A stretch of DNA of 64,000 nt from Candidatus Bathyarchaeia archaeon (GTDB lineage: Archaea; Thermoproteota; Bathyarchaeia; Bathyarchaeales; Bathycorpusculaceae): NCBI GenBank assembly GCA_038727135.1, contig JAVYWL010000002.1, forward strand, positions 7,186-71,185, written 5' to 3'. Shown here piece by piece: positions 19,635 to 47,221 of this stretch; position 1 is the stretch's first letter, and every line of letters starts with the position of its first letter. The notes under the pieces were generated by a model. It was not told the DNA's origin. It worked only from the letters and a program-made list of their open reading frames with translations, and made no database searches. The position numbers and the translations under genes were made by a program.

Positions 19635-19649
19635 CAAAGCCTCCAAAAG

Positions 19650-30936: not shown

Positions 30937-30939
30937 TAA

Positions 30940-31899
30940 TCATCCCTCCACCTTCCACCATTTCTCAATGCCATCTTTTGTGAGGTCGATGATGAAGCCT
31001 CTAAGCACCCCTTCGCTGTATTCTGAACCGGGGTTTATGGCTAAGGTTTTTCCTATATAGTCTGAAGCATAGGATTCATGGATGTGACCGTGCAAACTTA
31101 AGAGGGGCTGATTCTCCTCAATAAATCTTCGTATGGCTTTGCTGCCTACATTATCATAAATTATTCTTCCTAGGAAGACAACTGGCTTCAAGTTCTTATC
31201 CAGTTTTGGAGCCAAATCCAGTTTGGTGCAATATGGTGGACAGTGGAAATTTAGGATAACTTTCCTCCAGTCGCCGGAGAACATGTTCTTTATCCTTTCC
31301 AGCTTTTTCCATAACTCCTCTTCTGGAGCCTCTCGAGGCGTGTCCCATGGTGTAGGGTTAACCCATTCAAAACTTAGCATTTCATAGTCTAGGCATATGT
31401 TGACAACCTTTTCCAGCGGGTATATAACACGGTCCTCGTGGGCCTTTATCAATTCGTCAATTTCAAATGAGTCGTCATTTCCAGGCATCATAACAACGGT
31501 GACGTCTTTGGGCAGTTTTTCATCAATCATGTTAAGCCATCTTTGAAGTCTCTCTTTCATGTAACCGCGGAATAATTCGTCAACCCTTTTTGGATTCTTC
31601 ATAAGCTCGTCATACTCGTCTTGGCTGCAAACATGAGTGTAAAATCCGCTGAAAGTAATCTTATCAATTAGCTTTTTTAGTTCGTCTTCGCCGCTGGCGT
31701 TTATCCATCGCCCATAAACCATGGTCTTGTATCGGCCGGGGCTTTCCTCAATTATTGGTATTATGAGTTTTCCAGTTAAATCTCCACACAACAATAGAAC
31801 ATTTGCCTTATACACTTTGGGGATTGAGAGCCACTTTCGCCAAACCATTTCGCTTCCGTGTATGTCTACGGCATGAAAGAGTCTAACTTTTTCAGCCAT
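30940..31899 (-). CDS. Calcineurin-like metallophosphoesterase
   Basis: VDIHG, CGDLTG, MPGNDD and LHGHIHE are metallophosphoesterase motifs I-V. Confidence 0.7.
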   Translation of the reverse strand: MAEKVRLFHAVDIHGSEMVWRKWLSIPKVYKANVLLLCGDLTGKLIIPIIEESPGRYKTMVYGRWINASGEDELKKLIDKITFSGFYTHVCSQDEYDELMKNPKRVDELFRGYMKERLQRWLNMIDEKLPKDVTVVMMPGNDDSFEIDELIKAHEDRVIYPLEKVVNICLDYEMLSFEWVNPTPWDTPREAPEEELWKKLERIKNMFSGDWRKVILNFHCPPYCTKLDLAPKLDKNLKPVVFLGRIIYDNVGSKAIRRFIEENQPLLSLHGHIHESYASDYIGKTLAINPGSEYSEGVLRGFIIDLTKDGIEKWWKVEG

Positions 31900-32030: not shown

Positions 32031-32681
32031 ATGAAAGAAGAAGTCCTAAATAAACTGATGAACGCGGTCCTAAGCTATGACCCGGAAGCCGCTGTTAAAG
32101 CTGCGGAAGAAGCCCTCCAAAAAGGCGTAGACCCCGTTGAGGCCATTGAAGAAGGTCTAGCCAAAGGGGTAAGAATTGTCGGAGAGCGGTTCGGCGCCGG
32201 AGAAGCCTTTTTAACAGAGCTTGTAATAGCCGCGGAAGCCATGAAACAAGCCCTAAAAGTTCTCGAACCTGCAATTCTAAAAAGCGCTAGAGAAAAGAAA
32301 ACTCTAGGCAGGGTTCTTATAGGCACGGTGGAAGGAGATATCCACGACATTGGAAAGAACATTGTAAGTACGCTTCTCATGGTGGCCGGCTTTGAGGTTA
32401 TAGACATAGGAGTTGACGTTCCAACCGAAAAGTTCGTAGAGAAAGTTAAAGAGGTTAAACCAGACATAGTTGGAATGTCCGCCCTAATGACCACCACTAT
32501 GGCCAAAATGGCAGAGGTTATAGAAGCCCTAAAACGTGAAGGACTACGCGAAAAAGTTAAAGTGATAATAGGCGGGGCTCCCACATCCAAGAAGTGGGCC
32601 GAAGAAATAGGCGCCGACGGCCACGGCGGAGACGCCATAGAAGCTGTTGAAGTGGCAAAAAAGCTGGTGAAAGCCGCATAA
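32031..32681 (+). CDS. Corrinoid (cobalamin-binding) methyl-carrier protein 1
   Basis: B12-binding cap helix bundle plus a Rossmann domain with GDIHDIGKN (DxHxxG), SALMTTT and GGAP. Start at the ATG after AAGGTGG. Confidence 0.85.
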   Translation: MKEEVLNKLMNAVLSYDPEAAVKAAEEALQKGVDPVEAIEEGLAKGVRIVGERFGAGEAFLTELVIAAEAMKQALKVLEPAILKSAREKKTLGRVLIGTVEGDIHDIGKNIVSTLLMVAGFEVIDIGVDVPTEKFVEKVKEVKPDIVGMSALMTTTMAKMAEVIEALKREGLREKVKVIIGGAPTSKKWAEEIGADGHGGDAIEAVEVAKKLVKAA

Positions 32682-32725
32682 TCCAAGAGGCTGCTCGGTT
32701 ACGTTTTGAAGGTTGAGGCTCTAAA

Positions 32726-34183
32726 ATGGTTTTTCCCAGAGAAAATCAGAGGGTAAAATTCTCCGTCCTTTCCAGAGAAGATTTAGAAACGATTCACAAA
32801 GCCACCTTAGAAGTTTTAGAGACAACAGGGCTTAGAATCACTAGCCAAAAGTGCCTCAGGATTCTTGAGGAAGGAGGCTGCAAGGTTGATTATAAAAGGC
32901 AGGTGGCATTTATCCCCTCTTATTTGGTTGAAGAAGCCTTGAGGAAAAAACAGAAGAGCATAACTCTCTGTGCCAGAAATCCAAAATATGATGCAGTTTT
33001 GGATGAAAATCATGTGTATATAACCACTGACGGGAATGGAACCCAAACTTACGACATGGAAACTGGGGAAAGGCGGACTTCAACAAAGGATGATATAGCC
33101 AAATCAGCCATAATTTCAGACGCCATTGACGTGGTGGACATATATTGGCCCATGGTAAGTGCCCAAGACTATCCAGCCCACGTTCGACATCTCCACGATC
33201 TTGAGGTTTCTTTAGCTAACACGGAAAAACATGTAACCTTCGAAACAACCATGTCGCCTAAAGAAGCTAGATATCAGATAGAAATTGCAGCGGCAGTTCT
33301 CGGAGACGAAGAGAAGCTAAGGAAGAGGCCCATAATCTCTTCCCTACACTGCACAAGCGCCCCACTTCAAATGGATGGAAACAGCATGGAAGCCGCCCTA
33401 GAATTTTCTAAAGCTGGCATTCCAGTGATGTTTTTTGGAATGCCCCAGCCGGGAGCCACGGGTCCTGTAACGCTTGCCGGTTCTTTGGTTGTGAATAATG
33501 CTGAAGTTTTGGGCTGTCTCACTCTAACTCAATTGGTTTGTCCAGGGGCTCCTGTCATTTATGGCGCTGGCATAGCGGTTTTTGATATGAAAACCTTAAA
33601 ACGAGCTGGGGGAGGCCCGGAACACGGTTTAACCGGCGCCGCTGCCGGTGAGCTAGCAAGGTATTATGGTATGCCCTCTATTGTGGGAGGTTTTGTTTCA
33701 ACGGCAAAGACTCCGGGAGCCCAAGCATGTTATGAAAAGTTTGCAAGCGGGTTTCCACCAGTTTTCTCCGGGTGCAGCATGATCGCCGGGGTAGGATTGC
33801 TTGATGACTGCACAACCCTCGCCTTTGAAGAGATTCTAATAGACGCTGAAATTGTGAAGATAGTTTTCCGAATAGCCCAGGGAATAGAGGTTAACGACAA
33901 CACATTAGCACTTGATATTATCCGCAAAGTTGGTCCAGGCGGCAATTTCCTAGCCGAGAGACACACCCTTCAAAACTTGCGAAGGGAACATTTCATCCCC
34001 GAATTAACCGACAGGCGATCCTTCGAAGCGTGGATCAAGGATGGCGGGAAAGACCTGGTGAGGATAGCCAAGGAAAAGGTTAAGGTAATCCTTCAAACAC
34101 ACCAAGTTCAACCCTTAGAAAAGGATGTGCAAAAGGAAATCAAACGCATCATTGAAAGGGCTGAAAAGGATTTAGCTACCTAA
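32726..34183 (+). CDS. MttB-superfamily methyltransferase, non-pyrrolysine (paralog 1)
   Basis: 485 aa, uninterrupted. LSREDLETIHKATLEVLETTGLRI...FIPSYLVEEAL, GPGGNFLAERHT. Confidence 0.85.
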   Translation: MVFPRENQRVKFSVLSREDLETIHKATLEVLETTGLRITSQKCLRILEEGGCKVDYKRQVAFIPSYLVEEALRKKQKSITLCARNPKYDAVLDENHVYITTDGNGTQTYDMETGERRTSTKDDIAKSAIISDAIDVVDIYWPMVSAQDYPAHVRHLHDLEVSLANTEKHVTFETTMSPKEARYQIEIAAAVLGDEEKLRKRPIISSLHCTSAPLQMDGNSMEAALEFSKAGIPVMFFGMPQPGATGPVTLAGSLVVNNAEVLGCLTLTQLVCPGAPVIYGAGIAVFDMKTLKRAGGGPEHGLTGAAAGELARYYGMPSIVGGFVSTAKTPGAQACYEKFASGFPPVFSGCSMIAGVGLLDDCTTLAFEEILIDAEIVKIVFRIAQGIEVNDNTLALDIIRKVGPGGNFLAERHTLQNLRREHFIPELTDRRSFEAWIKDGGKDLVRIAKEKVKVILQTHQVQPLEKDVQKEIKRIIERAEKDLAT

Positions 34184-34233
34184 AAAGCTTATTAAAAACT
34201 TTGTTTGTTAAACGTTTCAAAAGGAGGAAAATT

Positions 34234-35676
34234 ATGCCTAAATCCTCTCTTCCAAAATTTCAGCCTTTGTCCGAGGATGAAATCGAGTCAATTCACCTTG
34301 CTTCTCTTAGACTCCTAGAAGAGGTTGGCGTGAAAATATACAGCGAAAACGCATTAAAATTATTAAGCGGCAACGGAGCTGAGGTGGACTTTGATAAGAA
34401 AATTGCCTATATCCCACAACATTTGGTTAAGGAAGCTCTCAGTAAGGCGCCTTCCACCATCAAACTTTATGGTAGAATTAGGAGACACGACAGAGTTTTA
34501 GAAGGAGACACAGTCACATTTAATCCTGGATCATCAGCCCTATACATTCTGGATTATGAGACTGGTGAAATTAGGAGACCAATTTCGAAGGATTTGGAGA
34601 ATCTTGTTAGACTTGCCGACGCTCTTGAACATATTCAGGCGCAAAGCACAGCCATGGTTGTTTCGGATGTCCCTCAGTCAATAGTGGACCGTTACCGCCT
34701 CTACATAGTTCTAAAAAATTCTTCAAAGCCAATAATAACCGGAGCCTTCAGCATCGATGGACTTTATGACATGAAAAGAATGCTTGAAATTGTGGCTGGC
34801 GGCGAGAAAGAATTAGCCAAAAAGCCCATGGCAATATTTGATGTTTGTCCCTCTTCACCGTTAAAATGGAGCGAAATCGACGTACAAAACCTAGTAGATT
34901 GCGCCAAATTCCGTTTACCTGTTAATATTATTCCAGCAATCCAGTTAGGTGCCACTGGTCCCGCAACGATAGCTGGCTCCCTTGTTCAACACAACGCCGA
35001 AGTTTTAAGCGGCTTGGTGATGGTTCAGCTAGTAAATCCGGGTTCCCCGGTGATTTATGGCGGTTCACCAACGGTTTTCGATCAGAGGTGTGCTACGGCT
35101 TGTCTAGGGGCTGTGGAAGCTATGCTTCTGGGTTGTGCCTACATCCAAATTGCAAAGAGCTATCGATTGCCAACTCACATGTATATTGGACTTAGTGATG
35201 CGAAGGTGATAGATGCACAATGCGGCTTTGAAACTGGAATAGGCTTAGTATTAGGAGCGTTGGCTGGAATAAACGTGATATCCGGACCGGGAATGTTAAA
35301 CTTTGAAAATTGCCAAAGTTTAGAAAAACTTGTTATAGACAACGAAATTTGCGGCATGGCACTTAGGCTAGCAAAGGGTGTTAAGGTTGAAGATGAAACA
35401 ATAGCCTTCGACCTTATTAAAAAGGTGGGGCCCGGCGGAACATACTTGGCAGAAAGGCACACTCTGGAATGGATTAGAAAAGAGCAGTTCGTACCATCAG
35501 AAATCATTGATCGCAAAGAATGGAAGGCTTGGAGAGATGCTGGGAAAAAAGACGTAGTGAAACGAGCTCACGAAATTGTCGAGAAAAAACTGAAAGAGCA
35601 TGTGCCTGAGCCGTTACCCAAAGATGTCCAAGAAAACCTTGACAATTTTGCAAAAGACCTATTGAAAAGATGCTGA
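34234..35676 (+). CDS. MttB-superfamily methyltransferase, non-pyrrolysine (paralog 2)
   Basis: LSEDEIESIHLASLRLLEEVGVKI, GPGGTYLAERHT. Start at the ATG after AAGGAGGA. Confidence 0.85.
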   Translation: MPKSSLPKFQPLSEDEIESIHLASLRLLEEVGVKIYSENALKLLSGNGAEVDFDKKIAYIPQHLVKEALSKAPSTIKLYGRIRRHDRVLEGDTVTFNPGSSALYILDYETGEIRRPISKDLENLVRLADALEHIQAQSTAMVVSDVPQSIVDRYRLYIVLKNSSKPIITGAFSIDGLYDMKRMLEIVAGGEKELAKKPMAIFDVCPSSPLKWSEIDVQNLVDCAKFRLPVNIIPAIQLGATGPATIAGSLVQHNAEVLSGLVMVQLVNPGSPVIYGGSPTVFDQRCATACLGAVEAMLLGCAYIQIAKSYRLPTHMYIGLSDAKVIDAQCGFETGIGLVLGALAGINVISGPGMLNFENCQSLEKLVIDNEICGMALRLAKGVKVEDETIAFDLIKKVGPGGTYLAERHTLEWIRKEQFVPSEIIDRKEWKAWRDAGKKDVVKRAHEIVEKKLKEHVPEPLPKDVQENLDNFAKDLLKRC

Positions 35677-35757
35677 AAGAATGGCATACCGCCCTAACTT
35701 TTTATGAAAATTTAAATAGATTCCCAACGGTAAGACAGATTCCAAGGAGGATTCAAG

Positions 35758-36663
35758 ATGTTCAAGTTTGAAAAGGAGCAGAAAATTTTTGACATTGCAA
35801 ACGTGAAGGTTGGAGGGCAACCAGGTCAACTTCCAACGGTGCTCATTGGAAGCATATTTTACCATAAGCACAAGATCGTAAAGGACGAGCGGAAAGGCGA
35901 GTTCGACAAGGAGAAAGCCGAAGAAGCACTGAAAAAGGAGGAGGAAATATCCAATAGAACTGGAAATCCGAGAATTGTGGATGTTTGCTGTTCATGGCCA
36001 GAAGCCTTTGAAAAATTCATAGAGTTTGTCGCAGACCATATTGATGGACCCTTTACGATTGATGGCGCCACAGCCGATGTTAGGATTGCCGGGGCAAAAT
36101 ATGTTGGGGAAGTAGGCTTATCCGAAAGGGTTGTTTACAATTCCATAACACCCCATGTTAAAGAGGAAGAAATCACAGCCATTAGAGACGCCAAGATTAA
36201 ATCTGCCGTACTTTTAACACTTAACACCAAAAACCCCACAATTTCGGGAAGGTTGCAGGTGCTCGACGAGTTATTAGCCACGGCTCAAAAGGCGGGAATA
36301 GAAAAGTTTTTGGTGGATACTACGGTTCTCGACCTGCCCGATCCGGGACCAGTTAGCAAGGCCATCTACCTAGTTAAGGAAAAATATGGGTTGCCCGCTG
36401 GGGCTGGAACACATAACGCTGTTGACAGATGGAAAAGTAGGCGCAAGCTTGATGCAACAGAGTATATGCTTGCAACCAGTGTAGCCAACGTTTTCCCCAT
36501 AATTGCCGGAGCCAACTTCATACTGTATGGACCCATTGAAAACGCTTCCCAAGCATACTTTTACTGTGGCTTAGCTGACGCTTATGTCGCTTACGCTGTT
36601 TCCCAAGAGTTTGGGGTAAGACCGTTAACAAGAGATCATCCATTATACAAAATATTCAGGTAA
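35758..36663 (+). CDS. mtrH: MtrH-like methyltransferase (methyl-corrinoid:tetrahydromethanopterin/folate methyltransferase)
   Basis: MFKFEKEQKIFDIANVKVGGQPGQLPTVLIGSIFY closely matches the MtrH N-terminus as I remember it. 301 aa. No other mtr genes nearby. Confidence 0.8.
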   Translation: MFKFEKEQKIFDIANVKVGGQPGQLPTVLIGSIFYHKHKIVKDERKGEFDKEKAEEALKKEEEISNRTGNPRIVDVCCSWPEAFEKFIEFVADHIDGPFTIDGATADVRIAGAKYVGEVGLSERVVYNSITPHVKEEEITAIRDAKIKSAVLLTLNTKNPTISGRLQVLDELLATAQKAGIEKFLVDTTVLDLPDPGPVSKAIYLVKEKYGLPAGAGTHNAVDRWKSRRKLDATEYMLATSVANVFPIIAGANFILYGPIENASQAYFYCGLADAYVAYAVSQEFGVRPLTRDHPLYKIFR

Positions 36664-36754
36664 AAGTTTAAACATCCTAAAAATTCGTTATAAAACCGCT
36701 TTACTATTTTCTTCTAATTCAAGTTTTTAAGTGTGCTATTGTGGAATATGGCTT

Positions 36755-37930
36755 TCACTTGTTTAACTTTTCTAGGGCTGTCCGCATTCTATTCATTGCT
36801 TCCTTTATTTTCTCCTTTGATGTCGCATAGGAAATTCTTATGTATCCTTCACCGTAATCGCCGAAGGCTGTTCCCGGCACTGTTATAACCTTTGCCTTCT
36901 CAAGAAGATACATTGCAATTTTCTCTGAGGGCATACCTGTTTCCTTTATGCTTGGGAAAACATAGAAGGCTCCCTCAGGTTTTAGACATGTAACTCCGGG
37001 CATACTGTTTAACTCTTTTGTTACGATTTCTCTTCTTTCGGCGTACTCCTTAAGCATTCTTTGCACGTGTTCCTTTGGACCGCGTAAAGCCGCAATGGCA
37101 GCCATCTGGGAAATGGAGCTTGGATGCACAAGGACGTGCTCTTGAAGTTCGAGCATAACCTCTGTAATCTCTTCTGGTGCCACGACAAAGCCTATGCGCC
37201 ATCCGGTCATGGCATAGGTTTTTGAGAATGTGAATATGCTTACTGTTCTCTCTTTCATTTCTGGAAGAGACGCGATGCTCACGTGGTTTACTCCATCATA
37301 TAAAATATTTTCATAAGCTTCATCGGAAATCACATAGAGGTCGTGTTCCAACACGATATCCGCTATGCTTTTCAGCTCCTTTTCCCTAAGCACAGCCCCT
37401 GTAGGATTGGACGGCGAATTAATAATGATAGCCTTCGTTTTCGGCGTTATCCTCTCCGCTATATCGTCGGCTTCTGCGTGGAAATTATTCTCCTCTTTGA
37501 GGGGATAATAAACCGGTTTGCCACCAGCAAGAACTGTTTGGGCAGCATAGTTTGGGAAGCCGGGATCTGGAATAAGCACCTCGTCGCCGGGGTCTATTAA
37601 AGCTAGCATCGCCAGAGATAAGCCTCCCATGGCTCCAGCTGTTGCCATAATTTCCTTCTCCGGGTCGGCTTCTATGCGGTTTTCTTTCCGCAGCTTTTCC
37701 GAAGCAACCTTCCTAAACTCTAGGAAACCAGCATTTACGGTGTAGTGGGTGTAGCCCTCCCTCATAGCCTTAAAAGCTGCCTCAATAATGTGCGGCGGCG
37801 TGTCAAAATCCGGCTCCCCTATTGATAAATTCACCAGGCCTTCATATTTTTGAGCCAAGTCAAACATTTTCCGGATTCCGGATTTTGGAATTTTCTTAGA
37901 ACGCTTTGAAAGTTTCAATTTTTTACTCAT
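36755..37930 (-). CDS. Class I/II PLP aminotransferase (aspartate aminotransferase-like)
   Basis: LSIGEPDFDTP, NPSNPTG, SFSKTYAMTGWRIG. 391 aa. Confidence 0.85.
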   Translation of the reverse strand: MSKKLKLSKRSKKIPKSGIRKMFDLAQKYEGLVNLSIGEPDFDTPPHIIEAAFKAMREGYTHYTVNAGFLEFRKVASEKLRKENRIEADPEKEIMATAGAMGGLSLAMLALIDPGDEVLIPDPGFPNYAAQTVLAGGKPVYYPLKEENNFHAEADDIAERITPKTKAIIINSPSNPTGAVLREKELKSIADIVLEHDLYVISDEAYENILYDGVNHVSIASLPEMKERTVSIFTFSKTYAMTGWRIGFVVAPEEITEVMLELQEHVLVHPSSISQMAAIAALRGPKEHVQRMLKEYAERREIVTKELNSMPGVTCLKPEGAFYVFPSIKETGMPSEKIAMYLLEKAKVITVPGTAFGDYGEGYIRISYATSKEKIKEAMNRMRTALEKLNK

Positions 37931-37955
37931 AAGGAACCCTACGCTTAACGAAAAT

Positions 37956-38612
37956 TTATTTCGAATATCCTAGAAGCCTTTTAACAACTTCGACTGCCTC
38001 TGTGGCGTCTGCTCCATAGCCGTCGGCGCCTATTTCTTCAGCCCATTCTCTGCTGGCTGGAGCCCCGCCTATGATTACTTTAACCTTGTCTCTTAGGCCT
38101 TCCCTCTTTAAAGCCTCAATGACTGTTCTTTGCTCTGGCAGGGTTGTGGTTAAGAGGGCTGACAGTCCAACGACGTCTGGCTTTAACTCTTTAATCTTCT
38201 CTACAAATTTTTCAGCTGGCACGTCCTCTCCAATGTCGTAAACTTCAAACCCGTTTGCTGTTAGCATAGAACCAACTATGGTTTTTCCTATGCTGTGGAT
38301 GTCTCCTGCAACAGTGCCTAAAAGCACTTTGCCAAGAGCCTTGCGCTCCTTCTTCGCCCGTCTTAGCTCTGGCTCCAAAACTTCTAAAGCTTTTTTCATA
38401 GTTTCTGCAGCCATTACCAGTTCTGGGAGAAACGCTTCTCCGTTGGCAAATTTTTCTCCAACCTCTCTTATTCCCCTAGCTAAGCCTTCCTCTATAGCCT
38501 TAAGAAGGTCAACCCCAAGCTTTACTGCCTCTTTAGCAGCGGAAACCGCCTCGTCAGCATTGTAGTTCAAAACTGAAAGCCTTAACCTTTCAATAATGTT
38601 TTCTGCGCTCAT
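37956..38612 (-). CDS. Corrinoid (cobalamin-binding) methyl-carrier protein 2
   Basis: GDIHSIGKT (DxHxxG), SALLTTT, GGAP. Roughly 60% identical by eye to carrier 1. Confidence 0.85.
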   Translation of the reverse strand: MSAENIIERLRLSVLNYNADEAVSAAKEAVKLGVDLLKAIEEGLARGIREVGEKFANGEAFLPELVMAAETMKKALEVLEPELRRAKKERKALGKVLLGTVAGDIHSIGKTIVGSMLTANGFEVYDIGEDVPAEKFVEKIKELKPDVVGLSALLTTTLPEQRTVIEALKREGLRDKVKVIIGGAPASREWAEEIGADGYGADATEAVEVVKRLLGYSK

Positions 38613-38613
38613 T

Positions 38614-40035
38614 TTAAGCTCCTCCCCTTCTCTTAATAATGCTTATAATTTTAGCTTTTACATCCTTTGAGAGCGGAAGAACTTGATGCTCTTTTAATAT
38701 TTTCTCGGCTTCTTCCTTAGCTTTAACCCATAAATCCCTAGCCCCCGATTTGACCCAAATGTCTGGAAAAGTCCTATCAGTTATTTTCGGTATCCAAATC
38801 TCCCTTCTGAAGTGTTCAAGGGTGTGGCGCTCTTTTATGAAGCTGCCTTTGGGTCCAACATTCTTGATAACGTCAAATGCTAGGGTTTCATCTGTGATTT
38901 CGAAGCCGCCTACAAGTTTCTTTATCATACTGACAATCTCATTGTCTATGATGAGCCCTTCCAGGCTCATGGTGTTTTCTGAGGCGATTAAACCCATTCC
39001 GCATATTAGGTTAAGACCAGCAAGGGCTGGAAGTACACCTGTTAAAGCCTTTTCATATCCCATCTGAGCGTCCAGAGATTTGGAGTCTGTTAAAACACCG
39101 CCGCCAGCGCTTGGAATACCGTAATAATGCGCCATGTTGGCAACGCATGAGTGTAGCAGGGCAAATTCTGGTCCTCCAAGCACGGCTGAAGCTTGTCTCA
39201 CATCCATGGCCCTTGCCCAACTCCCAATGACGAGCGGAGCGTTCTTGTTAACCACATAACGAATCACTAAGGCACTTATGAACTCAGCCATGTTTAGGGC
39301 TAGAGTTCCAGCCAAAGTCACTGGACTTGTCGCCCCAGCCATGGGACCAGAGTTCACAAAAACCGGGATGCCAAGTTTGCAAGCTTCAACAAAAGCTTCA
39401 AGGGTAGCCCTATCATAAGTAAGTGGACTCGTTATAGATATCAGCAAAAGCATTATCGGTTTTTTCCTCAACTCCTCAACTCCGCCAACAATAGTTGAAG
39501 CCATTTCAATGGCGTCTTGGGCGCCTTCCTTCCGCATAGCCTCATTAATTATTGGTTTACTTGTGTTTTCGAAGGCTGTTGCCCACATGTACCTATCCAC
39601 AATCTCATGGGGCACATCCATTGGAGAGCCCATACACATGTAAAACTCAACATTATCTAAGGCGTCGGCAATTCTCGTTGCATTCGCCAAGTCTTGAACT
39701 GTAACCCTCCTATAAGTTCTTGACGCGGCATCATAGAAGTTAGTTGCAAAACCCACGGTGCCGAAACGGGTTTCATCCCCGCCCAGAGTCCTCCTCGTTT
39801 TCAAGTCTCTATGGTAAACGCTAAATCTATGGGGTGTCTTCTGCAGAGCGTCCTCAGCAAGATAATGTGGAATAAACGCTCGCTGACTTTTATGATCAAC
39901 CTCAGCGCCCGCCTCCTCAAGCTTTTGAAGAACTTCTTCATAGGGAATTATAACGCCGACCTCTTGAAGGATATCCAAACTTGTCAGATGCACAGCGTAC
40001 CTTTGTCTCTTGGAAAGTAAATTAGGGTAGTACAT
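38614..40035 (-). CDS. MttB-superfamily methyltransferase, non-pyrrolysine (paralog 3)
   Basis: 473 aa, uninterrupted. FIPHYLAEDAL, GPKGSFIKERHT. 1-nt spacing to corrinoid gene 2. Confidence 0.85.
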   Translation of the reverse strand: MYYPNLLSKRQRYAVHLTSLDILQEVGVIIPYEEVLQKLEEAGAEVDHKSQRAFIPHYLAEDALQKTPHRFSVYHRDLKTRRTLGGDETRFGTVGFATNFYDAASRTYRRVTVQDLANATRIADALDNVEFYMCMGSPMDVPHEIVDRYMWATAFENTSKPIINEAMRKEGAQDAIEMASTIVGGVEELRKKPIMLLLISITSPLTYDRATLEAFVEACKLGIPVFVNSGPMAGATSPVTLAGTLALNMAEFISALVIRYVVNKNAPLVIGSWARAMDVRQASAVLGGPEFALLHSCVANMAHYYGIPSAGGGVLTDSKSLDAQMGYEKALTGVLPALAGLNLICGMGLIASENTMSLEGLIIDNEIVSMIKKLVGGFEITDETLAFDVIKNVGPKGSFIKERHTLEHFRREIWIPKITDRTFPDIWVKSGARDLWVKAKEEAEKILKEHQVLPLSKDVKAKIISIIKRRGGA

Positions 40036-40144
40036 GGTTTTTTACCTTTTAAATAATATGAGCTTAAAGGTTGTCCTAATAAAATTTATTCTCAATGTAC
40101 GAAAAATTTTTAGGAAGCATTTTCAGCTTTTTTAATGAAGTGTC

Positions 40145-41011
40145 ATGAAAGTCAATCTACTCCGTAAATATAATTATTTATTTTTATATTTGCCAGCTCT
40201 GGTCCTTTTTTTTGTATTTTTCCTAACGCCTTTTGTTCTTATGATCAGAATAAGTTTTTTCATAGGGAAACCATTACATTGTTATATAGAAGGTTTTACG
40301 ATTGAAAATTATTTGCGATTTTTAAGAGACTCCTATGTTCACGAACGGTTAATGTTCACACTTCAGTTATCAGCACCAGTAATTTTCCTAACTCTTGCTC
40401 TTGCCTATATTATGGCATATGCAATATCTCGTTCTTCCGGGATTAAGCGGTTGGTACTTATTTGTATTACTATTTTTCCAATTTGGATAAATTTAGTTGT
40501 TCTAGCTTTTGGCTGGCAAGTCGTATTCGCAAGATACGGTCTCATAAACTACTTTCTAATGAATATCGGTCTTATAGATAAACCCACACCACTTGGATAT
40601 AACTTCATTTCTGTTGTGATAGGACTAGTCTACGTATGTTTACCTTATACTATTTTAACTTTGTTAAGTGTGCTTGACAATATCGATCCAACATTAGAAG
40701 AAGCGGCGAAAGATCTTGGAGCCTCAAAATTCAAAATCTTTGTCGAAGTAACGTTGCCTCTGTCAATGCCCGGAATAATTACAGGAGCAGCTTTTTGTTT
40801 CGTATGGGCTATGAGTTCTTTTGTTATTCCCTCATTTCTCGGTTCTCCTATGCAAAAAACAATCGGCATGGAAATAGCTAACCAGGTGTTAACGGCGTTA
40901 AACTGGCCTTATGGTTCTGTGTTAAGCATCGTATTATTATGTATAACTAGTTTGACATTACTTACTTCAAACACATTAAGGGAGAGGGCCACAAGATGGG
41001 CAAAACAATAA
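40145..41011 (+). CDS. ABC transporter permease (PotB-like)
   Basis: 6 TM. EAAKDLGASKFKIFVEVTLPLSMPGI (EAA loop). Confidence 0.8.
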   Translation: MKVNLLRKYNYLFLYLPALVLFFVFFLTPFVLMIRISFFIGKPLHCYIEGFTIENYLRFLRDSYVHERLMFTLQLSAPVIFLTLALAYIMAYAISRSSGIKRLVLICITIFPIWINLVVLAFGWQVVFARYGLINYFLMNIGLIDKPTPLGYNFISVVIGLVYVCLPYTILTLLSVLDNIDPTLEEAAKDLGASKFKIFVEVTLPLSMPGIITGAAFCFVWAMSSFVIPSFLGSPMQKTIGMEIANQVLTALNWPYGSVLSIVLLCITSLTLLTSNTLRERATRWAKQ

Positions 41012-41805
41012 TTAAATCAAGTAATTTTTTAAACCTTGCCTGTGCCTTAATATCAGCCTTTATGATAACTCCAGTAGCCTTAATTTTTATAACATCTCTT
41101 GATCCAGCTAAGTACATACGGTTTCCTCCATCGGGGTTTTCGCTGTTATGGTATGAGTATTTTTTTTCGAACAAAATGTGGCAAGATGCTCTCCTTAATA
41201 GTATTTATGTAGCAGTTTTAAACACCGTTATCTCTGTTCCATGTGGAATTATGGCAGCCTACGCGTACAGAAAATATCCTTTTACCAAGTTGAAAAATAT
41301 ATTTAATACAATTATGATAATTCCATATGTAACTCCAAGTTTGTTAATTGGAATTGCACTTTTGATGGCCTTCGGTCAAACAATCCTTAGAGGAACCTAT
41401 TTTATGGTCGCAATTGCCCATGCATTATGGTCAACATCCTTTGTTTATATTCTTATGCAAGCTGCTTTAGCAAACTATGACTTTACATATGAAGAAGCAG
41501 CGAAAGATCTTGGAGCTAATCTGGTTCAAGTATTTTCCGAAGTTACATTACCTCTTTTAAAGAGTGCCCTCATAGCGGCAATTCTCTTTGCCTTTATTTC
41601 ATCATTTGGTGAAGTAACTATGGCTATTTTTTTGGTAACAAACAAAACAATCACCCTACCAGTTCTTTTATGGACATCACTAAAATATGAATTACATCCA
41701 GTAGCAACTGTTGCTTCAGTGATCTGCATCATTTTCGCAATTGTTATATTTGTATTAATTACTAAATTTTTTGGAACTGGAATATTAACTAAAATCGGGA
41801 TGTAA
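40996..41805 (+). CDS. ABC transporter permease (PotC-like)
   Basis: EAAKDLGANLVQVFSEVTLPLLKSAL. 6 TM. Confidence 0.8.
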   Translation: MGKTIIKSSNFLNLACALISAFMITPVALIFITSLDPAKYIRFPPSGFSLLWYEYFFSNKMWQDALLNSIYVAVLNTVISVPCGIMAAYAYRKYPFTKLKNIFNTIMIIPYVTPSLLIGIALLMAFGQTILRGTYFMVAIAHALWSTSFVYILMQAALANYDFTYEEAAKDLGANLVQVFSEVTLPLLKSALIAAILFAFISSFGEVTMAIFLVTNKTITLPVLLWTSLKYELHPVATVASVICIIFAIVIFVLITKFFGTGILTKIGM

Positions 41806-41807
41806 AA

Positions 41808-42887
41808 ATGGAGATAGCAGTTGAGACAAGAAATATAACTAAAAGATTCGAAAAAGGTAAGGTTGTAGCTCTCGACAATGTCTCTATTTACGTTAAAAAA
41901 GGTGAAATTTTTACTTTACTAGGTCCCTCTGGGAGTGGAAAATCTACTCTCTTAAGGATTATTGATGGATTGGAACAGCCCGATAGTGGTGATGTTTTTA
42001 TAGATGGCAAATGCGTCACCTATGTTCCTGCACATAAACGAGACGTATGCATGGTTTTCCAAAGACTTGCACTTTTTCCTCACAAAAACGTATTTGAAAA
42101 CGTAGCTTTTGGTTTGAAAATGCGTAAATTTGATAAGAATGAAATAAAGAAAAGGGTTGAGGAAACTCTTTGGAAAGTTGAACTTGACCCAGAAATTTAC
42201 ACCTCGCGCTTTCCGCATCAGTTAAGTGGAGGAGAAATGCAACGCGTTGCGTTGGCAAGAGCAATAGTTTTACGTCCAGCTGTAATACTTTTTGATGAGC
42301 CTTTATCCAGCCTTGATAGACGTTTGCGCGATAAAATGCGTGTAGAATTAAAACAGTTATTAAAAAAGTTCAATATAACAGCTATTTATGTGACCCATGA
42401 TCAGGAGGAAGCTTTCGTTATTTCCGATAGAATGGCTGTAATAAATAAGGGTAAAATCGTTCAAGAGGGAACTCCACTGGAGCTTTATGAGAAACCGCAA
42501 TCAGCCTTTGTTGCAAATTTCCTAGGTGATACTAACATTTATAAAGGAGTTATAAAGCAAATAAAAGGCAACTTAGTGATTATAGAACTTCAAGGAGGAA
42601 CATGTATAACTGCCAAATATGCGGATGCCCCGTCTATTTCAAGAGATGTTTTGGTATCTTTAAAAGCTGAGAAAATTGTTTTGTCTGATCGGCCTTTATT
42701 CGAAAACCATTTAGAAGCTGTAATAAGGGATGTTATATTCATGGGTGAAAAAATCATGTATATAGTTGAGGTGAGTAAAGAGTTAACGCTAAAAGCATTT
42801 GAAAAAAATTTTGGTAAGATTTGGCGTAAAGGAGGCAAGGTGCTAGTAAATTGGCTTCCAGACGACGTAGCACTTATCCCAGGGTAA
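41808..42887 (+). CDS. ABC transporter ATP-binding protein (PotA/CysA-like with C-terminal TOBE-type domain)
   Basis: Walker A GPSGSGKST, signature LSGGEMQRVALARA, Walker B ILFDEPLS. Confidence 0.9.
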   Translation: MEIAVETRNITKRFEKGKVVALDNVSIYVKKGEIFTLLGPSGSGKSTLLRIIDGLEQPDSGDVFIDGKCVTYVPAHKRDVCMVFQRLALFPHKNVFENVAFGLKMRKFDKNEIKKRVEETLWKVELDPEIYTSRFPHQLSGGEMQRVALARAIVLRPAVILFDEPLSSLDRRLRDKMRVELKQLLKKFNITAIYVTHDQEEAFVISDRMAVINKGKIVQEGTPLELYEKPQSAFVANFLGDTNIYKGVIKQIKGNLVIIELQGGTCITAKYADAPSISRDVLVSLKAEKIVLSDRPLFENHLEAVIRDVIFMGEKIMYIVEVSKELTLKAFEKNFGKIWRKGGKVLVNWLPDDVALIPG

Positions 42888-43142
42888 TTTCTGTTTTAAG
42901 CTTAAAGTTTCAGCAAAATATCTCACTTTCTTATGTATAACAATTAAATGTTTCATTTATATAATTCTTCAACGCTAAAGCTACGATATCACCTCAAATT
43001 CAAACATTTGAATTTTATTAAGCTTAAATTGTTTAGCGACGCTATTAAGTAAAGCTTTATATTACTTATCTCATTTTAACAGTGGACTAAAGCTGTAGGA
43101 GATTCTATACAAGTTTTTATGTTGATTTTCACAATTTGTTTT

Positions 43143-44168
43143 TTATTCCAATTTTAGTTTTGGATAGTACCCTAAAACTTCTTGGTTAACTACATGTTTA
43201 GGTTTGATACATTTGTAAAACCTTATTATTTCTTCACATGCCATTTTTCGAACATTTATGATTGATTCCTCGCTGTACCATGCTATATGAGGTGTGATGA
43301 TGACGTTTTTAAGCTTCAAGAACGGACTATTTTTATCAAGAGGTTCTTTTTCAAAAACATCTAAGGCAGCTGCATAAATGGTGTTGTTTTGCAACGCTTC
43401 ATATAAAGCTTCTTGATCCACTATCGCTCCGCGGGATACATTTATCAACATTGCCGTTTTTTTCATTAAGTTAATTCTTTTTTTGTCTATTAAATGATAG
43501 GTCTCTTTCGTGAGTGGGCAATGGATTGAGATTATATCAGAAGCTTTTAATAGGTTGTCTAAATCAGCTTGCATAACTCCAGAATCTTTGAAGATTACAT
43601 CTGGCAAATATGGATCATAAACAAGAATCCTTAAACCAAGGGACTTAAGTTTTTTGGCTACTTCCATTCCAATTCTTCCAAATCCAATGATTCCAGCCGT
43701 CTTCCCGCTTAGTCTATAAATCGGACTGAAACGTTTCCAGTCCGTCCTAAAATTCGCCTTTCCTTTTTTTGTATAATAGTCGATCCATGGAATTTTTCTA
43801 GCTAAAGCAAAAATTAAACTTAAAGTATGCTCAGTTACTTCAACTGTGCAATAGTCTGGGATATTGCATACTATTATCCTCTTTTTTGTTGCTGTTTTTA
43901 AATCAATATTGTCATATCCAACAGCCAAGCGGACGATTAAGCGTAAATTTTTCAGAGATGATAATATTTTTTTATTTAAAGGTAGCAGGTTGCTGATAAT
44001 TACATCCGCATCCCTTGCAACATTCAAAATCTCACTATCGTTTTTACACCTAAAAGATTTTATTTCCGCGTTTATTTCTTTTAAGGCTTCTTTCTCAAGG
44101 GAGACGTCATCAAATGGATTATCCACCATTACAACTCTAATTCTATCTACATTCATTGTATCAATCAT
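43143..44168 (-). CDS. D-isomer-specific 2-hydroxyacid dehydrogenase family protein
   Basis: NAD fold GIIGFGRIGMEVAKK; VSRGAIVD; ITPHIAWYS. Confidence 0.8.
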   Translation of the reverse strand: MIDTMNVDRIRVVMVDNPFDDVSLEKEALKEINAEIKSFRCKNDSEILNVARDADVIISNLLPLNKKILSSLKNLRLIVRLAVGYDNIDLKTATKKRIIVCNIPDYCTVEVTEHTLSLIFALARKIPWIDYYTKKGKANFRTDWKRFSPIYRLSGKTAGIIGFGRIGMEVAKKLKSLGLRILVYDPYLPDVIFKDSGVMQADLDNLLKASDIISIHCPLTKETYHLIDKKRINLMKKTAMLINVSRGAIVDQEALYEALQNNTIYAAALDVFEKEPLDKNSPFLKLKNVIITPHIAWYSEESIINVRKMACEEIIRFYKCIKPKHVVNQEVLGYYPKLKLE

Positions 44169-44431
44169 CTAGTTCGTTAAGTGCAACAAAAATATAATTT
44201 TTGCTGACCGATTCTCGCGTACGTAATCGTGTTTTAACTTGGTGGTTACCTTTTCTTATTCGCAAATCTTTAAGGACAGGTTTCCTAACCTATAACCGTA
44301 AGCTACAATCTTGTTTTCCGGATTTTAGACTAAAGGTCACTTGTAATGTTTACATTTTAATCTTACATAGAGGCTCAATTCAGTAAAATTTATATCTTCT
44401 TAAAAAAACATAACCAAAGAATGGTGATACA

Positions 44432-45556
44432 ATGAAATTGGTATTTAAGTATGTGTCGGTCTTTATTTTGGGGATTATAATCGGGGCAGCATCGATATAC
44501 CTTATCTACCAGCCTCAAATGGTCAAAACCACCGAGTATAAAGTTGTCAGTGAGTTTGAATACTTACGACAGAAGTTTCAAGGAATGACTTTAAGGGTTA
44601 CTGCTTGGAGCGGACCGTATGCGGAAAACTTTAGGTGGGCAATTGTTGAACCCTTTGAAGATTTAACCGGCGTAAATATTGAATTAGTTATTGGTTGGGC
44701 GGAATTTATACCTATGTTACAAGCGGCTCCTCCGGACCAGCCACCATTCGACGTTTTTAATCTCGATGATTATAATTTTATTGCTGCAAAAAACCTGGAT
44801 AAGCTTTTACCATTGAATTTATCAAGGATTCCTAATGCCCAATATGTATACTCATGTTTAAAACAAAAGAGAGAAGAGTGGAAATCAGGACTCGCCATAC
44901 CATTTGATGGAGGCTTGTATACCATAATTGTGAACAGGGAGGTTGTGCCATTTGAAATCACTTCCTGGGCGGATTTAAAGCGCCCAGAACTTAGAGGCTT
45001 AATTGCAATGGATCGAACTTGGTATTATGGGCTCTATGTAGGTGCGTTAATGTTAGGTCATAAGTACTTAAATGATACAAACGTAGATGCAGCGTTTGCA
45101 GAAATTGCTAGTTTAAAAGATAGCGTTCACGTGTGGTACACTTCAGGAGCAGAAGCCCTTCAACTCTTAGAATCAAAGGAGGTGGGTGTAGCGATTTATT
45201 ACACTGGGGGTGCTTATGACGCCATCAAAAGAGGGGAACCGTTAGAAATAGTCATTCCTAGGGAAGGAGCAATAGCCTGGCTTGGATCCCTAAGTATAGT
45301 GCGTGGGGTGTCACCGGAAATTCGGGAACTTGCAGAAGCGTTTATTAACTTCGCGCTAAGTCCCGTTAGTCAATCGAGACATGTCACAAAATCCGGTAAT
45401 TTTGTGTGCGGGGAGTACGCAAAGGTTCCGAAAGACCAATACTTTAATCCTGCAAGCAACGAAGAAATGGATAAAATGGTGTTCTTTGACTGGGAGTGGC
45501 TCGAGCAACACTGGACAGAACTAGAAAATCGATGGAATACAGAAATTTTAGGCTAA
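44432..45556 (+). CDS. ABC transporter substrate-binding protein (PotD/PotF-like), membrane-anchored
   Basis: N-terminal TM anchor followed by a family-1 SBP-like sequence. Separated from potBCA by the dehydrogenase gene. Confidence 0.7.
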   Translation: MKLVFKYVSVFILGIIIGAASIYLIYQPQMVKTTEYKVVSEFEYLRQKFQGMTLRVTAWSGPYAENFRWAIVEPFEDLTGVNIELVIGWAEFIPMLQAAPPDQPPFDVFNLDDYNFIAAKNLDKLLPLNLSRIPNAQYVYSCLKQKREEWKSGLAIPFDGGLYTIIVNREVVPFEITSWADLKRPELRGLIAMDRTWYYGLYVGALMLGHKYLNDTNVDAAFAEIASLKDSVHVWYTSGAEALQLLESKEVGVAIYYTGGAYDAIKRGEPLEIVIPREGAIAWLGSLSIVRGVSPEIRELAEAFINFALSPVSQSRHVTKSGNFVCGEYAKVPKDQYFNPASNEEMDKMVFFDWEWLEQHWTELENRWNTEILG

Positions 45557-45750
45557 GCTCATTCCTCTTTTCTTTTCCATTTTTAAATTCTTAAAGAAAA
45601 TCAATTCAAAAACGGAGCGACCATACTTATCGAGTTTAAAATGCGTAAACTGTGAAAAATACTTCAGTCAAAATTTTTCAATAATAAAGAAAGAATTTTG
45701 AAGAAAAGATTTTAAAGGCTGCATAGTAAAACGACTCAGCGTGGTATATT

Positions 45751-47208
45751 ATGATTGGTTTCTCCAGAGATGATCAAAAAATAAAAATCAGAATTTTTTC
45801 TCGATCTGAGTTGGAAGCTATTCATTGGGCTACGCTGGATATTCTTGAGAGAACTGGTGTTAAGATATACAGTGAAAAATGTCTAAAAATCCTCGAGGAG
45901 GCTGGTTGTAAGGTAGATTACAAAATGGGGTGTGCATTAATTCCCTCCGAGGTCGTTGAAGAGGCTTTAAGAAAGAAAAAAAGTGTATTTAGGTTGTGTG
46001 CCAGAAACCCGAAATATGACTTGAAGCTAGATGGCAGACATGTGTACATAACCACGGATGGCAACGCGGTAAACACTCTGGATTTTGAGACTGGGGAAAG
46101 AAGGGCTTCAACAAAAGATGACATTGCTAAGTCAGCCACCATCGCAGACGCGCTTGACTCTGTTGGCGTTTATTGGCCAATGGTCACCTCCTCAGATGTG
46201 CCTGCGCCCATTCGACATTTGCACGACTTAGAAGCATCTTTAGCCAATACTGAAAAGCACGTTCAACTTGAAACAATAGTCAAACCAAAAGTAGCCCGTT
46301 ATGCAGTTGAAATTGCAGCGGCTGTGGTTGGAGACACAAAAAAGCTCAGGGAACGCCCAATAATATCCTCTCTGCATTGCACCATATCGCCCCTCCAACA
46401 TGAAGGGGGATCCATTGAAGCAGCATTAGAATTTGCCAAGGCAGGTATACCCGTATCCTTTTATGGAATGCCACAAGCAGGTGCCACCAGCCCAGTAACG
46501 CTTGCAGGAGCAGTCGTTATTAATAACGCCGAAGTTTTAAGTGGCCTTGTAATAGTGCAACTTGTGCATCCAGGAGCACCAGTGATATATGGCACTGGCG
46601 GCGCTGGTTTTGACATGAAAGCGGGCACTTGGACAGGGGGATCACCAGAACGGGCGCTAATTTCGGCAGCCGCGGGGGAGCTGGCTAAATACTATAATAT
46701 GCCATCTCTTGTGGGAGGTTTTGTTACATCCGCCAAAACTATCGACGCACAAGCATGTTATGAAAAGCTCATCAGCGGCATCCCCCAAGTTCTTTCCGGA
46801 TGCGACATAATTGCTGGAATAGGCCTCATCGACAACTGCAATACCCTTTCGTTTGAGCAGCTTCTGATAGATGATGAAATCGTTAACATGACTTTTCGCC
46901 TTGTTGAAGGCATAGAAGTGAAAGAACAGACAATAGCACTCGACCTGATTCAAAAAATTGGTCCCGGGGGCAATTTCTTGGCTGAGAAGCATACACTTGA
47001 ATATTTGCAGAAAGAACACTTCATTCCAAAATTAACTGATAGACGCTCTTATGAGGCCTGGCTTAAAAATGGCGCAAAGGACATCACAAAGAGGGCAAAA
47101 GAAAAAGTTAAAACAATCCTCCAACAACATCAACCACAACCCCTGCCAAAAGAAACTCGAACGGAAATACAAAATATCATTGGACGTGCAGAAAAAGATA
47201 TGATTTAA
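45751..47208 (+). CDS. MttB-superfamily methyltransferase, non-pyrrolysine (paralog 4)
   Basis: 485 aa, colinear with paralog 1 and about two-thirds identical by eye. GPGGNFLAEKHT. Confidence 0.85.
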   Translation: MIGFSRDDQKIKIRIFSRSELEAIHWATLDILERTGVKIYSEKCLKILEEAGCKVDYKMGCALIPSEVVEEALRKKKSVFRLCARNPKYDLKLDGRHVYITTDGNAVNTLDFETGERRASTKDDIAKSATIADALDSVGVYWPMVTSSDVPAPIRHLHDLEASLANTEKHVQLETIVKPKVARYAVEIAAAVVGDTKKLRERPIISSLHCTISPLQHEGGSIEAALEFAKAGIPVSFYGMPQAGATSPVTLAGAVVINNAEVLSGLVIVQLVHPGAPVIYGTGGAGFDMKAGTWTGGSPERALISAAAGELAKYYNMPSLVGGFVTSAKTIDAQACYEKLISGIPQVLSGCDIIAGIGLIDNCNTLSFEQLLIDDEIVNMTFRLVEGIEVKEQTIALDLIQKIGPGGNFLAEKHTLEYLQKEHFIPKLTDRRSYEAWLKNGAKDITKRAKEKVKTILQQHQPQPLPKETRTEIQNIIGRAEKDMI

Positions 47209-47221
47209 AGGTGAAGTGTTT

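Follow-up and report, generated by a model that had tools for sequence, protein, structure and literature searches.

Four MttB homologues that lack pyrrolysine and the acid-binding arginine in a probable corrinoid-dependent methyl-transfer locus of Bathyarchaeia

We examined a 64,000-nt stretch of contig JAVYWL010000002.1 from a Candidatus Bathyarchaeia archaeon (the window; all coordinates are positions in it, and L-numbers denote loci of related genomes or metagenomes) that encodes four members of the MttB methyltransferase family, two small corrinoid proteins (CoP1 and CoP2) and one MtrH homologue. The core of the locus consists of two divergent units: CoP1, MttB1, MttB2 and MtrH on the plus strand, separated by 44, 50 and 81 nt, and MttB3, CoP2 and an aminotransferase on the minus strand, separated by 1 and 25 nt. 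An initial annotation had described a single 15-kb island. Its gene content is present, but the island is not one unit, as positions 40036-47221 are a strain-specific insertion, and the strand picture is amended in that MttB3 and the carrier CoP2 lie on the minus strand. The main features are as follows (aa, amino acids; ORF, open reading frame; MT1 and MT2, the first and second methyltransferases of a corrinoid system).

32031..32681, plus strand: CoP1, 216 aa, first gene of the plus-strand operon; B12-binding 107 bits, B12-binding_2 73 bits
32726..34183, plus strand: MttB1, 485 aa; PF06253 333 bits
34234..35676, plus strand: MttB2, 480 aa from its ATG (the longest ORF begins at a TTG at 34201); PF06253 342 bits
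35677..35757, plus strand: activase deletion scar, the 81-nt mttB2-mtrH spacer, with ~55 nt left of a RACo-type gene's 3' end
35758..36663, plus strand: MtrH/MtgA-type MT2 (predicted, soluble), 301 aa; PF02007 304 bits
36755..37930, minus strand: aminotransferase class I/II, last gene of the MttB3-CoP2-aminotransferase unit; PF00155 263 bits
37956..38612, minus strand: CoP2, 218 aa; B12-binding 104 bits, B12-binding_2 72 bits
38614..40035, minus strand: MttB3, 473 aa; PF06253 310 bits
40036..47221, no strand assigned: strain-specific insertion of 7.2 kb, absent from seven related loci and low in GC content at third codon positions (GC3)
45751..47208, plus strand: MttB4, 485 aa; PF06253 359 bits

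All seven core genes are intact. The core is kept in L001, L002 and L010, with nucleotide identities of about 94-98%, and also in L006, L007, L008, L009 and L014, where MtrH identity is 82-92%. A Pfam scan that took in every ORF of at least 195 aa in the window revealed the archaeal markers TBP and CTP-dependent riboflavin kinase. The genomes nearest to the MtrH query are Bathyarchaeia metagenome-assembled genomes labelled DRTY-6, DGJ8 and ZZQ, which are Yunnan hot-spring sites. Among the scanned ORFs there was no match to the URO-D (MtaA/MtbA), RACo/RamA, Mcr or pyrrolysine (Pyl) families, which agrees, at the scale of the window, with the gene absences listed in the initial annotation.

The four MttB-family assignments hold up well, with matches to PF06253 that are nearly full length (310-359 bits, E values of 1e-92 to 1e-107, model positions about 24-499 of 500). 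MttB1 and MttB4 are 66% identical, the remaining paralog pairs only 34-40%, and identities to Methanosarcina barkeri MttB and Desulfitobacterium hafniense MtgB are 32-37% and 30-33%, respectively. In a neighbour-joining tree whose only references are MtgB and MttB, and whose deep nodes are uninformative, three subfamilies are recovered with bootstrap values of 95-100%: MttB1 with MttB4, MttB3, and MttB2 with a fifth subtype seen in relatives only (a clade with 100% bootstrap). The AlphaFold2 (AF2) model of MttB4 (mean predicted confidence, pLDDT, 85.7) superimposes on MttB (7XCL) with a template modelling (TM) score of 0.84 and on MtgB (9YCE) with one of 0.83, and its sole extended region of low confidence (404-443) coincides with the dimerisation loop; MttB4 is thus predicted to adopt the TIM-barrel fold with a C-terminal dimerisation extension. 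Within the alignment, the pocket signature of each paralog is conserved among its own orthologues, which argues for distinct, maintained specificities.

The two corrinoid proteins likewise proved to be what the initial annotation took them for. Besides a B12-binding_2 cap and a Rossmann-type B12-binding domain, CoP1 carries the motifs DIHDIG, SALMTTT and GGAP and CoP2 the motifs DIHSIG, SALLTTT and GGAP, that is, the DxHxxG/SALxTTT/GGAP series. Both exceed the TIGR02370 cut-off of 215 bits (CoP1, 232; CoP2, 228), and both fall under the specific MtgC and MtbC equivalog cut-offs. The closest match of CoP1 in the Protein Data Bank (PDB) is M. barkeri MttC (7xcn_M, 214 bits), and its 216-aa gene call is identical in relatives. 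CoP2 starts 1 nt past the MttB3 stop.

The ORF that had been called MtrH-like is indeed a member of PF02007, and it lies above the NF002142 (316 against 287) and TIGR01114 (285 against 271) cut-offs; against the MtgA model it scores 281, under the cut-off of 550. Its identity to 8z9u_B, its best PDB match, is 46%, to D. hafniense MtgA (6sj8, deposited in the PDB as a methylcorrinoid:tetrahydrofolate methyltransferase) 43%, and to methanogen MtrH 31-36%. A literature search on entry 8Z9U returned nothing relevant. The window's ORFs of at least 120 aa contain no further Mtr-subunit match (Pfam) that would indicate a membrane MtrA-H complex. By analogy to MtgA, this protein is a plausible route for the methyl group to a pterin.

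The neighbourhood of soluble mtrH genes differs from that of methanogen-type ones. Of 40 genome loci with soluble mtrH, 18 have a RACo activase within 6 kb, 16 a corrinoid protein, 9 an MttB and 8 a URO-D-type methyltransferase, whereas at methanogen-type mtrH loci each such neighbour occurs in at most 2 of 40, and MttB in none. In L011 (11130-12889) and at 7 further loci among L006-L045, the same activase-mtrH pair stands beside a URO-D-family methyltransferase and a corrinoid protein, an arrangement like that of bacterial-type O-demethylases. Since it pairs with URO-D-family MT1s as well as with MttB, soluble MtrH would appear to work for several families of MT1 in Bathyarchaeia and in other archaea.

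As the initial annotation had stated, none of the MttB-type ORFs has an in-frame TAG, and none has an internal stop. The residues aligned with Pyl334 are V, L, L and V in MttB1-4 (the Leu of MttB3 being encoded by UUA), and the four proteins have A, S, C and A, respectively, in place of Tyr364. Of the four, only MttB2 departs from Gly110, with a Ser there. Tyr364 and Gly110 are 100% conserved in Pyl-containing MttB and needed for Pyl activation (PMC9842639). Because of the residues in the Pyl334 and Tyr364 columns, the alignment indicates that MttB1-4 are not true trimethylamine methyltransferases. TAG serves as an ordinary stop here, ending 13 of the 59 window genes. The window's tRNAs comprise only tRNA-His and one probably intron-bearing tRNA (24326-24427, plus strand; Rfam tRNA, 102 nt, 53.5 bits, not reported by ARAGORN), and Pfam and tRNA scans of the 64 kb found no pylTSBCD gene.

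Two signals appear to point the other way. MttB4 (553.5 bits) and MttB1 (536.7) exceed the cut-off of 525 of TIGR02369, while MttB2 (473) and MttB3 (465) do not; TIGR02369 is the NCBIfam equivalog "[trimethylamine--corrinoid protein] Co-methyltransferase", and JGI names the MttB1 and MttB4 homologues accordingly. This result conflicts with the residue-level evidence and is not decisive. In addition, Rfam reports PYLIS_3 within MttB3 (38994-39093, minus strand; 57.4 bits against a gathering score of 38). The match begins exactly at the Pyl-equivalent codon, which is UUA, and sub-threshold matches of 18.8-23.0 bits lie at the homologous place in the other paralogs (46721-46822, 35191-35290 and 33693-33794). 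As a sign of Pyl decoding PYLIS_3 was rejected on three grounds: its first codon is UUA, all four paralogs match, and the model has few base pairs, so that a match reflects coding-sequence homology and is a false positive for Pyl. From the alignment, both the TIGR02369 and the PYLIS_3 signals are read as homology effects and not as evidence of pyrrolysine. Since MttB1 and MttB4 pass the equivalog cut-off without Pyl334 or Tyr364, annotation by hidden Markov model (HMM) alone mislabels this clade: two paralogs pass as trimethylamine methyltransferases and one triggers Rfam PYLIS.

These signals are also what could be cited for a conventional methanogenic methylamine pathway with its coenzyme M (CoM) methyltransferase, Mcr and pyl genes in another part of the genome, as is the fact that some Bathyarchaeia carry Mcr (PMC8407382). 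We consider such a pathway extremely unlikely. The Pyl position holds no UAG and Tyr364 is replaced in every paralog, TAG is used as a normal stop, the PYLIS match starts on UUA, the window has no URO-D/MtbA gene, and the operon's own MT2 is MtrH-like.

The initial annotation had modelled the four enzymes on the characterised quaternary-amine demethylases, for which the pocket residues give poor grounds. A 2026 study of the MtgB active site showed that Arg312 and His348 hold the acid group of the substrate, Arg312 being conserved in MtgB, MtcB, MtpB, MtyB and MthB and His348 less strictly so (PMC13080624); MthB accepts choline only once it is phosphorylated (PMC12155760). In MttB1-4 the Arg312 column (MtgB numbering) holds I, H, A and L, and among 137 aligned sequences only the MtgB reference has Arg there. 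Conserved P-S and D-A/S-K motifs stand on either side of this column. His348 falls within a one-residue insertion unique to MtgB among the aligned sequences, next to which MttB1-4 have A, S, C and A. Residues were mapped by alignment, which has no gaps and is anchored by motifs around the Arg312 and Pyl columns but is less certain in the Tyr97 region; the relation to MtpB, MtcB, MtyB and MthB relies on the published statement about Arg312 together with the alignment to MtgB.

Having neither Arg312/His348 nor Pyl334/Tyr364, the four enzymes would act on substrates that are neither the known betaines nor trimethylamine, and judging from these residues archaeal MttB homologues should probably not be annotated by default as acting on a "quaternary amine like glycine betaine or carnitine". 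Without pyrrolysine, the leaving group of the methyl donor must already be activated. On these chemical grounds, the donors of MttB1-4 are likely onium-type compounds.

The initial annotation had also noted that a RamA-type activase is missing. This is true of the window, but it is a lineage-specific deletion with a scar and not a design feature, because relatives have a RACo-type gene between mttB2 and mtrH. In L007, L008, L009 and L014 that place is taken by a full 630-aa activase (domains Fer2, RACo_linker, Raco_middle and RACo_C_ter) that ends 2 nt before the mtrH start. By tblastn, residues 614-628 of the L007 activase match 35703-35747, a remnant of 15 residues only, and the scar translation includes ENLNRFPTVR where the activase has ENLNKFPSVR. 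L010 and L006 share the shortened mttB2-mtrH spacer of about 80 nt, with its remnant of about 55 nt.

The loss of the activase invites the question whether the cluster is decaying and non-functional, given that the RACo-type gene is deleted down to its scar and that the 64 kb hold no second copy. Selection on the remaining genes makes this very improbable. Compared with L006, which carries the same activase deletion, the ratio of nonsynonymous to synonymous substitution rates (dN/dS) is 0.05-0.08, at synonymous divergences (dS) of 0.57-0.85 for MttB1-3, MtrH, CoP2 and the aminotransferase and of 0.57-1.2 overall. The remaining cluster genes have thus been under purifying selection after the activase was lost. 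Decay is further contradicted by the intact state of all seven core genes and by the gain of a new MT1 cassette after the deletion. The cultured Ca. Baizosediminiarchaeum ligniniphilus, moreover, has no identifiable activase either and yet expresses its own system (PMC10989822). With the cluster's RACo-type gene deleted, reactivation of Co(II) carriers would have to rely on an activase encoded elsewhere, and a trans-encoded enzyme would be the simplest explanation. That the system persists under selection without its own activase is a testable addition to a scheme based on annotation.

The new MT1 is MttB4, and the 7.2-kb insertion that carries it also holds the following genes.

40145-41011 and 40996-41805, plus strand: two ABC importer permeases, BPD_transp_1 in each
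41808-42887, plus strand: ABC importer ATPase, ABC_tran and TOBE_2
43143..44168, minus strand: D-isomer-specific 2-hydroxyacid dehydrogenase, 341 aa; 2-Hacid_dh_C 215 bits
44432..45556, plus strand: PotD/PotF-like solute-binding protein, 374 aa; SBP_bac_8 88 bits

Since MttB3 stands directly beside the PALP gene in relatives, 40036-47221 is an insertion. It is absent from L001, L002 and L010 despite their closely similar flanks (about 94-98% nucleotide identity), and from L006, L007, L009 and L014, where the PALP gene directly follows MttB3. The core cluster has a GC3 of 0.40-0.47 and the insertion one of 0.27-0.39, with values of 0.27-0.31 for its transporter and dehydrogenase genes. A deletion on the side of the relatives was rejected in view of this deviant GC3 and of the MttB3-PALP junction in all seven loci (82-99% MtrH identity). 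No convincing repeats or integrase flank the insertion; tRNA-His lies 2.3 kb away.

The dehydrogenase falls under all NCBIfam equivalog cut-offs, and its nearest PDB relatives are generic phosphoglycerate dehydrogenases and glyoxylate reductases. The solute-binding protein has weak PotD and PhnS2 matches, its best PDB matches are polyamine-binding proteins (57-66 bits), and it is not of the OpuAC/ProX betaine-binding type. Orthologues of the importer occur at 65-70% identity in L087, beside an MttB-family gene, and also in L086, L088 and L029; the dehydrogenase accompanies the transporter in L086-L088. In the three closest metagenomic relatives of the solute-binding protein (82%, 81% and 66%), the same transporter and dehydrogenase stand beside an MttB of the fifth subtype. 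The transporter-MttB module abuts mtrH and an activase in L088 and L029, and the aminotransferase-CoP2 pair in L087. As for MttB4 itself, an orthologue at 84% identity lies directly upstream of CoP-MttB-MttB in L098, and others at 69-76% adjoin Opp-type ABC transporters and amidohydrolases (L003-L005). The repeated position of MttB genes beside importers shows that MT1 genes in this lineage are modular and have been coupled to importers more than once. The cassette probably supplies and processes the substrate of MttB4, and an importer, a dehydrogenase and an MT1 that travel together offer a handle on the identity of that substrate.

A more specific proposal, which we put forward as possible but doubtful, is that the subfamilies without Arg312 (MttB1/MttB4; MttB2 with the fifth subtype; MttB3) use non-acidic onium or polyamine-like cations taken up by PotABCD-type import, and that MT1 cassettes have spread onto a resident CoP-MtrH hub that has no activase in cis. 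If true, the donor class would be new relative to all characterised members, which act on acidic betaines or phosphocholine.

Taken as a whole, the locus is best explained as a corrinoid relay in which four non-Pyl MT1s pass methyl groups to two carriers, an MtrH-type MT2 and finally a pterin, the source lineage being a hot-spring Bathyarchaeia archaeon that carries this corrinoid-dependent methyl-transfer hub; we put the probability of this reading at roughly two in three. The four MttB enzymes, which fall into three deep subfamilies, would each remove a single methyl group from a methylated, onium-type substrate of its own and transfer it to the Co(I) of a small His-on corrinoid protein. On gene order only, CoP1 would serve MttB1 and MttB2, CoP2 would serve MttB3, and MttB4 would be without a carrier of its own, having arrived with the 7.2-kb cassette that also brought a PotABCD-like ABC importer and the 2-hydroxyacid dehydrogenase. 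The soluble MtrH/MtgA-type enzyme would then move the methyl group from CH3-Co(III) to a pterin, most likely tetrahydromethanopterin (H4MPT), from which it could enter the methyl branch of the Wood-Ljungdahl pathway and not coenzyme M. Carriers oxidised to Co(II) would be reactivated by the activase encoded elsewhere. The choice of H4MPT as acceptor and of Wood-Ljungdahl entry comes from the literature on Bathyarchaeia (PMC7886697, PMC10989822) and not from the content of the window. The flow from demethylases through carriers and MtrH to a pterin had been proposed in the initial annotation; the three-component architecture and the 43% identity of MtrH to MtgA favour it, while the direction of flow is an inference and the idea is not novel.

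Several points weigh against this relay. The window contains no Wood-Ljungdahl, H4MPT or tetrahydrofolate (THF) gene, which means that the sequence itself does not fix where the methyl group ends up, and no activase was found across the 64 kb (no RACo_C_ter match by Pfam, and the remnant only by tblastn with a relative's activase). The absence of Mcr, MtaA/MtbA, pyl and a second activase is a statement about the 64-kb window. Arg312 and His348, which bind the substrate in the characterised non-Pyl members, are missing, so that these members do not predict the chemistry of the donors. The archaeal MttB-CoP-MtrH scheme has so far rested on annotation.

A further point concerns direction: Loh et al. 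note that a bathyarchaeal CoP-MtrH couple could run anabolically (PMC7886697). Methyl-H4MPT would then pass its methyl group through MtrH and the carriers to MttB-like enzymes that methylate acceptor molecules, for instance when osmolytes or cofactors are made, and all characterised representatives of the MttB superfamily, being demethylases (PMC13080624, PMC12155760), speak against this. The recurrent importers, which depend on a solute-binding protein here and in L086-L088 and L029 and are of the Opp type in L003-L005, also suggest uptake. Corrinoid-pterin methyl transfer is reversible in principle, as in MetH/MeTr-type enzymes, which lends the anabolic direction some plausibility; on balance we regard it as quite unlikely.

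Less remote, and overlapping with the relay itself, is the possibility that nutrient release comes first, with N-methylated amines or amino-acid derivatives being stripped so that the backbone enters amino-acid catabolism and the methyl group is a by-product. A gap of 25 nt separates CoP2 from the downstream aminotransferase gene, whose product falls under all NCBIfam equivalog cut-offs, and the two genes remain neighbours in L006, L007, L009, L014 and L087. Between mtrH and the aminotransferase, L007 (10916-14817), like L009 and L014, has an aldehyde:ferredoxin oxidoreductase gene and a proline-racemase-family gene, and in L007 the gap adds an ornithine-cyclodeaminase/mu-crystallin-family gene; all three are absent from the window. 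Judging from these gap genes, the products in those relatives may have backbones of the proline or hydroxyproline type. The amino-acid permease, BKACE and class-III aminotransferase upstream of the cluster (see below) and the Opp-type transporters and amidohydrolases next to MttB4 orthologues would fit as well. Set against this, the synteny is documented among fairly close relatives only, no neighbour is specific to a named methylated compound, and two of the neighbours that might be invoked, of the PALP and arginase families, may be housekeeping genes.

47222-48484, plus strand: ThrC-like pyridoxal phosphate enzyme; PALP 244 bits, TIGR00260 thrC 210 against a cut-off of 167
48501-49394, plus strand: agmatinase-like ureohydrolase; Arginase 238 bits, TIGR01230 agmatinase 193 against a cut-off of 174

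This pair is syntenic in L001, L007, L009 and L014. Both genes exceed the cut-offs of housekeeping equivalogs (threonine synthase and agmatinase), for which they were dropped as clues to the substrate; they are probably housekeeping genes. We consider it unlikely that nutrient release is the primary role.

The relay that we favour resembles several known systems. The D. hafniense MtgB-MtgC-MtgA glycine betaine:tetrahydrofolate system (2QNE/9YCE, 6SJ8) has the same three homologous components: its MT1 is 30-33% identical to those of the window (TM 0.83 for MttB4), its MtrH-family MT2 43% identical, and the DxHxxG carrier is shared. In contrast to D. hafniense, the window has four MT1s and two carriers in an archaeal host, the acceptor is probably H4MPT, the scores fall under the MtgA and MtgC cut-offs, and the MtgB pocket residues Y97, R312, H348 and F356 are all replaced. 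The closest solved MT1 is that of the M. barkeri MttB-MttC(+MtbA) trimethylamine:CoM system (7XCL/7XCN; 297 bits and TM 0.84 for MttB4), which also provides the closest solved carrier, MttC, at 214 bits. Unlike their M. barkeri counterparts, the window enzymes have neither a pyrrolysine codon nor Tyr364, the window encodes no MtbA/MtaA, and the MT2 is MtrH-like and predicted to use a pterin and not CoM. Eubacterium limosum MthB, MtcB, MtpB and MtyB, with RamQ, also belong to the MttB superfamily; they act as MT1s together with a corrinoid protein and a THF-methylating MT2, and several paralogs feed one C1 pool. Those enzymes act on acidic quaternary amines and keep Arg312, which the window paralogs lack, and their systems are bacterial, THF-based and equipped with an activase. 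Ca. B. ligniniphilus (Bathy-8) has an O-demethylase, MtgB_1/2-MtgC-MtgA, in which a corrinoid protein and an MtrH-like MT2 lead to the proposed CH3-H4MPT, and for which MT1 and carrier activity was shown in vitro (PMC10989822); it acts on methoxylated aromatics, however, and its MT1 comes from a Bathyarchaeia-specific family of ~300 aa without relation to MttB.

Predicted clusters with the same gene set and logic have been described in Culexarchaeia, Brockarchaeia, Freyarchaeia/Atabeyarchaeia/Sifarchaeia and Bathy-6 (PMC9723716, PMC11291895, PMC7886697), and their shared scheme comprises a non-Pyl MttB, a COG5012 corrinoid protein and an isolated MtrH that feeds the H4MPT/THF branch, with no Mcr. 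In Culexarchaeia, mtrH occurs with mttB (COG5598), a corrinoid protein (COG5012) and an activase (COG3984), and the clusters were read as methylotrophy on quaternary amines or unknown substrates without Mcr or pyl (PMC9723716). Atabeyarchaeia and Freyarchaeia were read in the same way, with reference to Sif-, Brock- and Culexarchaeia (PMC11291895), and a CoP-MtrH couple was reported for Bathy-6 (PMC7886697). The scheme is also in the literature for Thermoplasmata basal to Methanomassiliicoccales, and PMC10989822 is among the papers that propose such a methyl relay; "Methylotrophy in the Mire" (PMC10805028) contains no relevant bathyarchaeal MttB data. Among the loci recovered with our MtrH query are one from Culexmicrobium (L018) and one from Hecatellales (L016).

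With the same clusters already predicted from several archaeal genomes, the locus is not of a new kind, and the non-methanogenic MttB-CoP-MtrH module, which the initial annotation had presented as a novelty, had been proposed before (PMC9723716, PMC11291895, PMC7886697). Relative to the predicted archaeal clusters, the window differs in its larger number of MT1 paralogs (four, in three subfamilies), its two carriers, its activase scar, and an MT1 brought by a transporter-dehydrogenase cassette. What is new here is the absence of the acid-binding Arg from all paralogs, the transporter-linked cassette, and the activase scar together with continued purifying selection. Which methylated compounds such archaea consume affects the amount of substrate that reaches methylotrophic methanogens.

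Other genes of the window surround the cluster. Divergent from CoP1 is a trio of genes at 29386-31899 (minus strand), one of them a weak metallophosphoesterase match at 30940-31899 and the other two encoding proteins of 262 and 232 aa without Pfam or NCBIfam match; the trio keeps its place beside the cluster in L001, L007, L008, L009 and L014. Just upstream, at 25486-29378, lie genes for a class-III aminotransferase, a BKACE protein (330 bits against the Kce model, under the cut-off of 382) and an APC-family amino-acid permease, which are syntenic in close relatives and may form a beta-amino or keto-acid catabolic module. On the other side, tRNA-His (49502-49577) and the 5' two-thirds of a GNAT gene (49595-50098) fall within a segment, 49377-50020, that is missing in L001 and L010; as all that remains of GNAT at these loci is its 3' end, the difference is a deletion on the side of the relatives or an assembly artefact. 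At 52374-53279 (minus strand) there is a 301-aa ORF without Pfam or NCBIfam match, which resembles the ~300-aa Bathyarchaeia O-demethylase MT1 (PMC10989822) in size alone. Farther upstream, a type IV pilus or archaellum-like locus extends over 13893-21918 (plus strand), with a T2SSE ATPase (16515-18131), a T2SSF membrane protein (18135-19634) and six surrounding ORFs without family matches.

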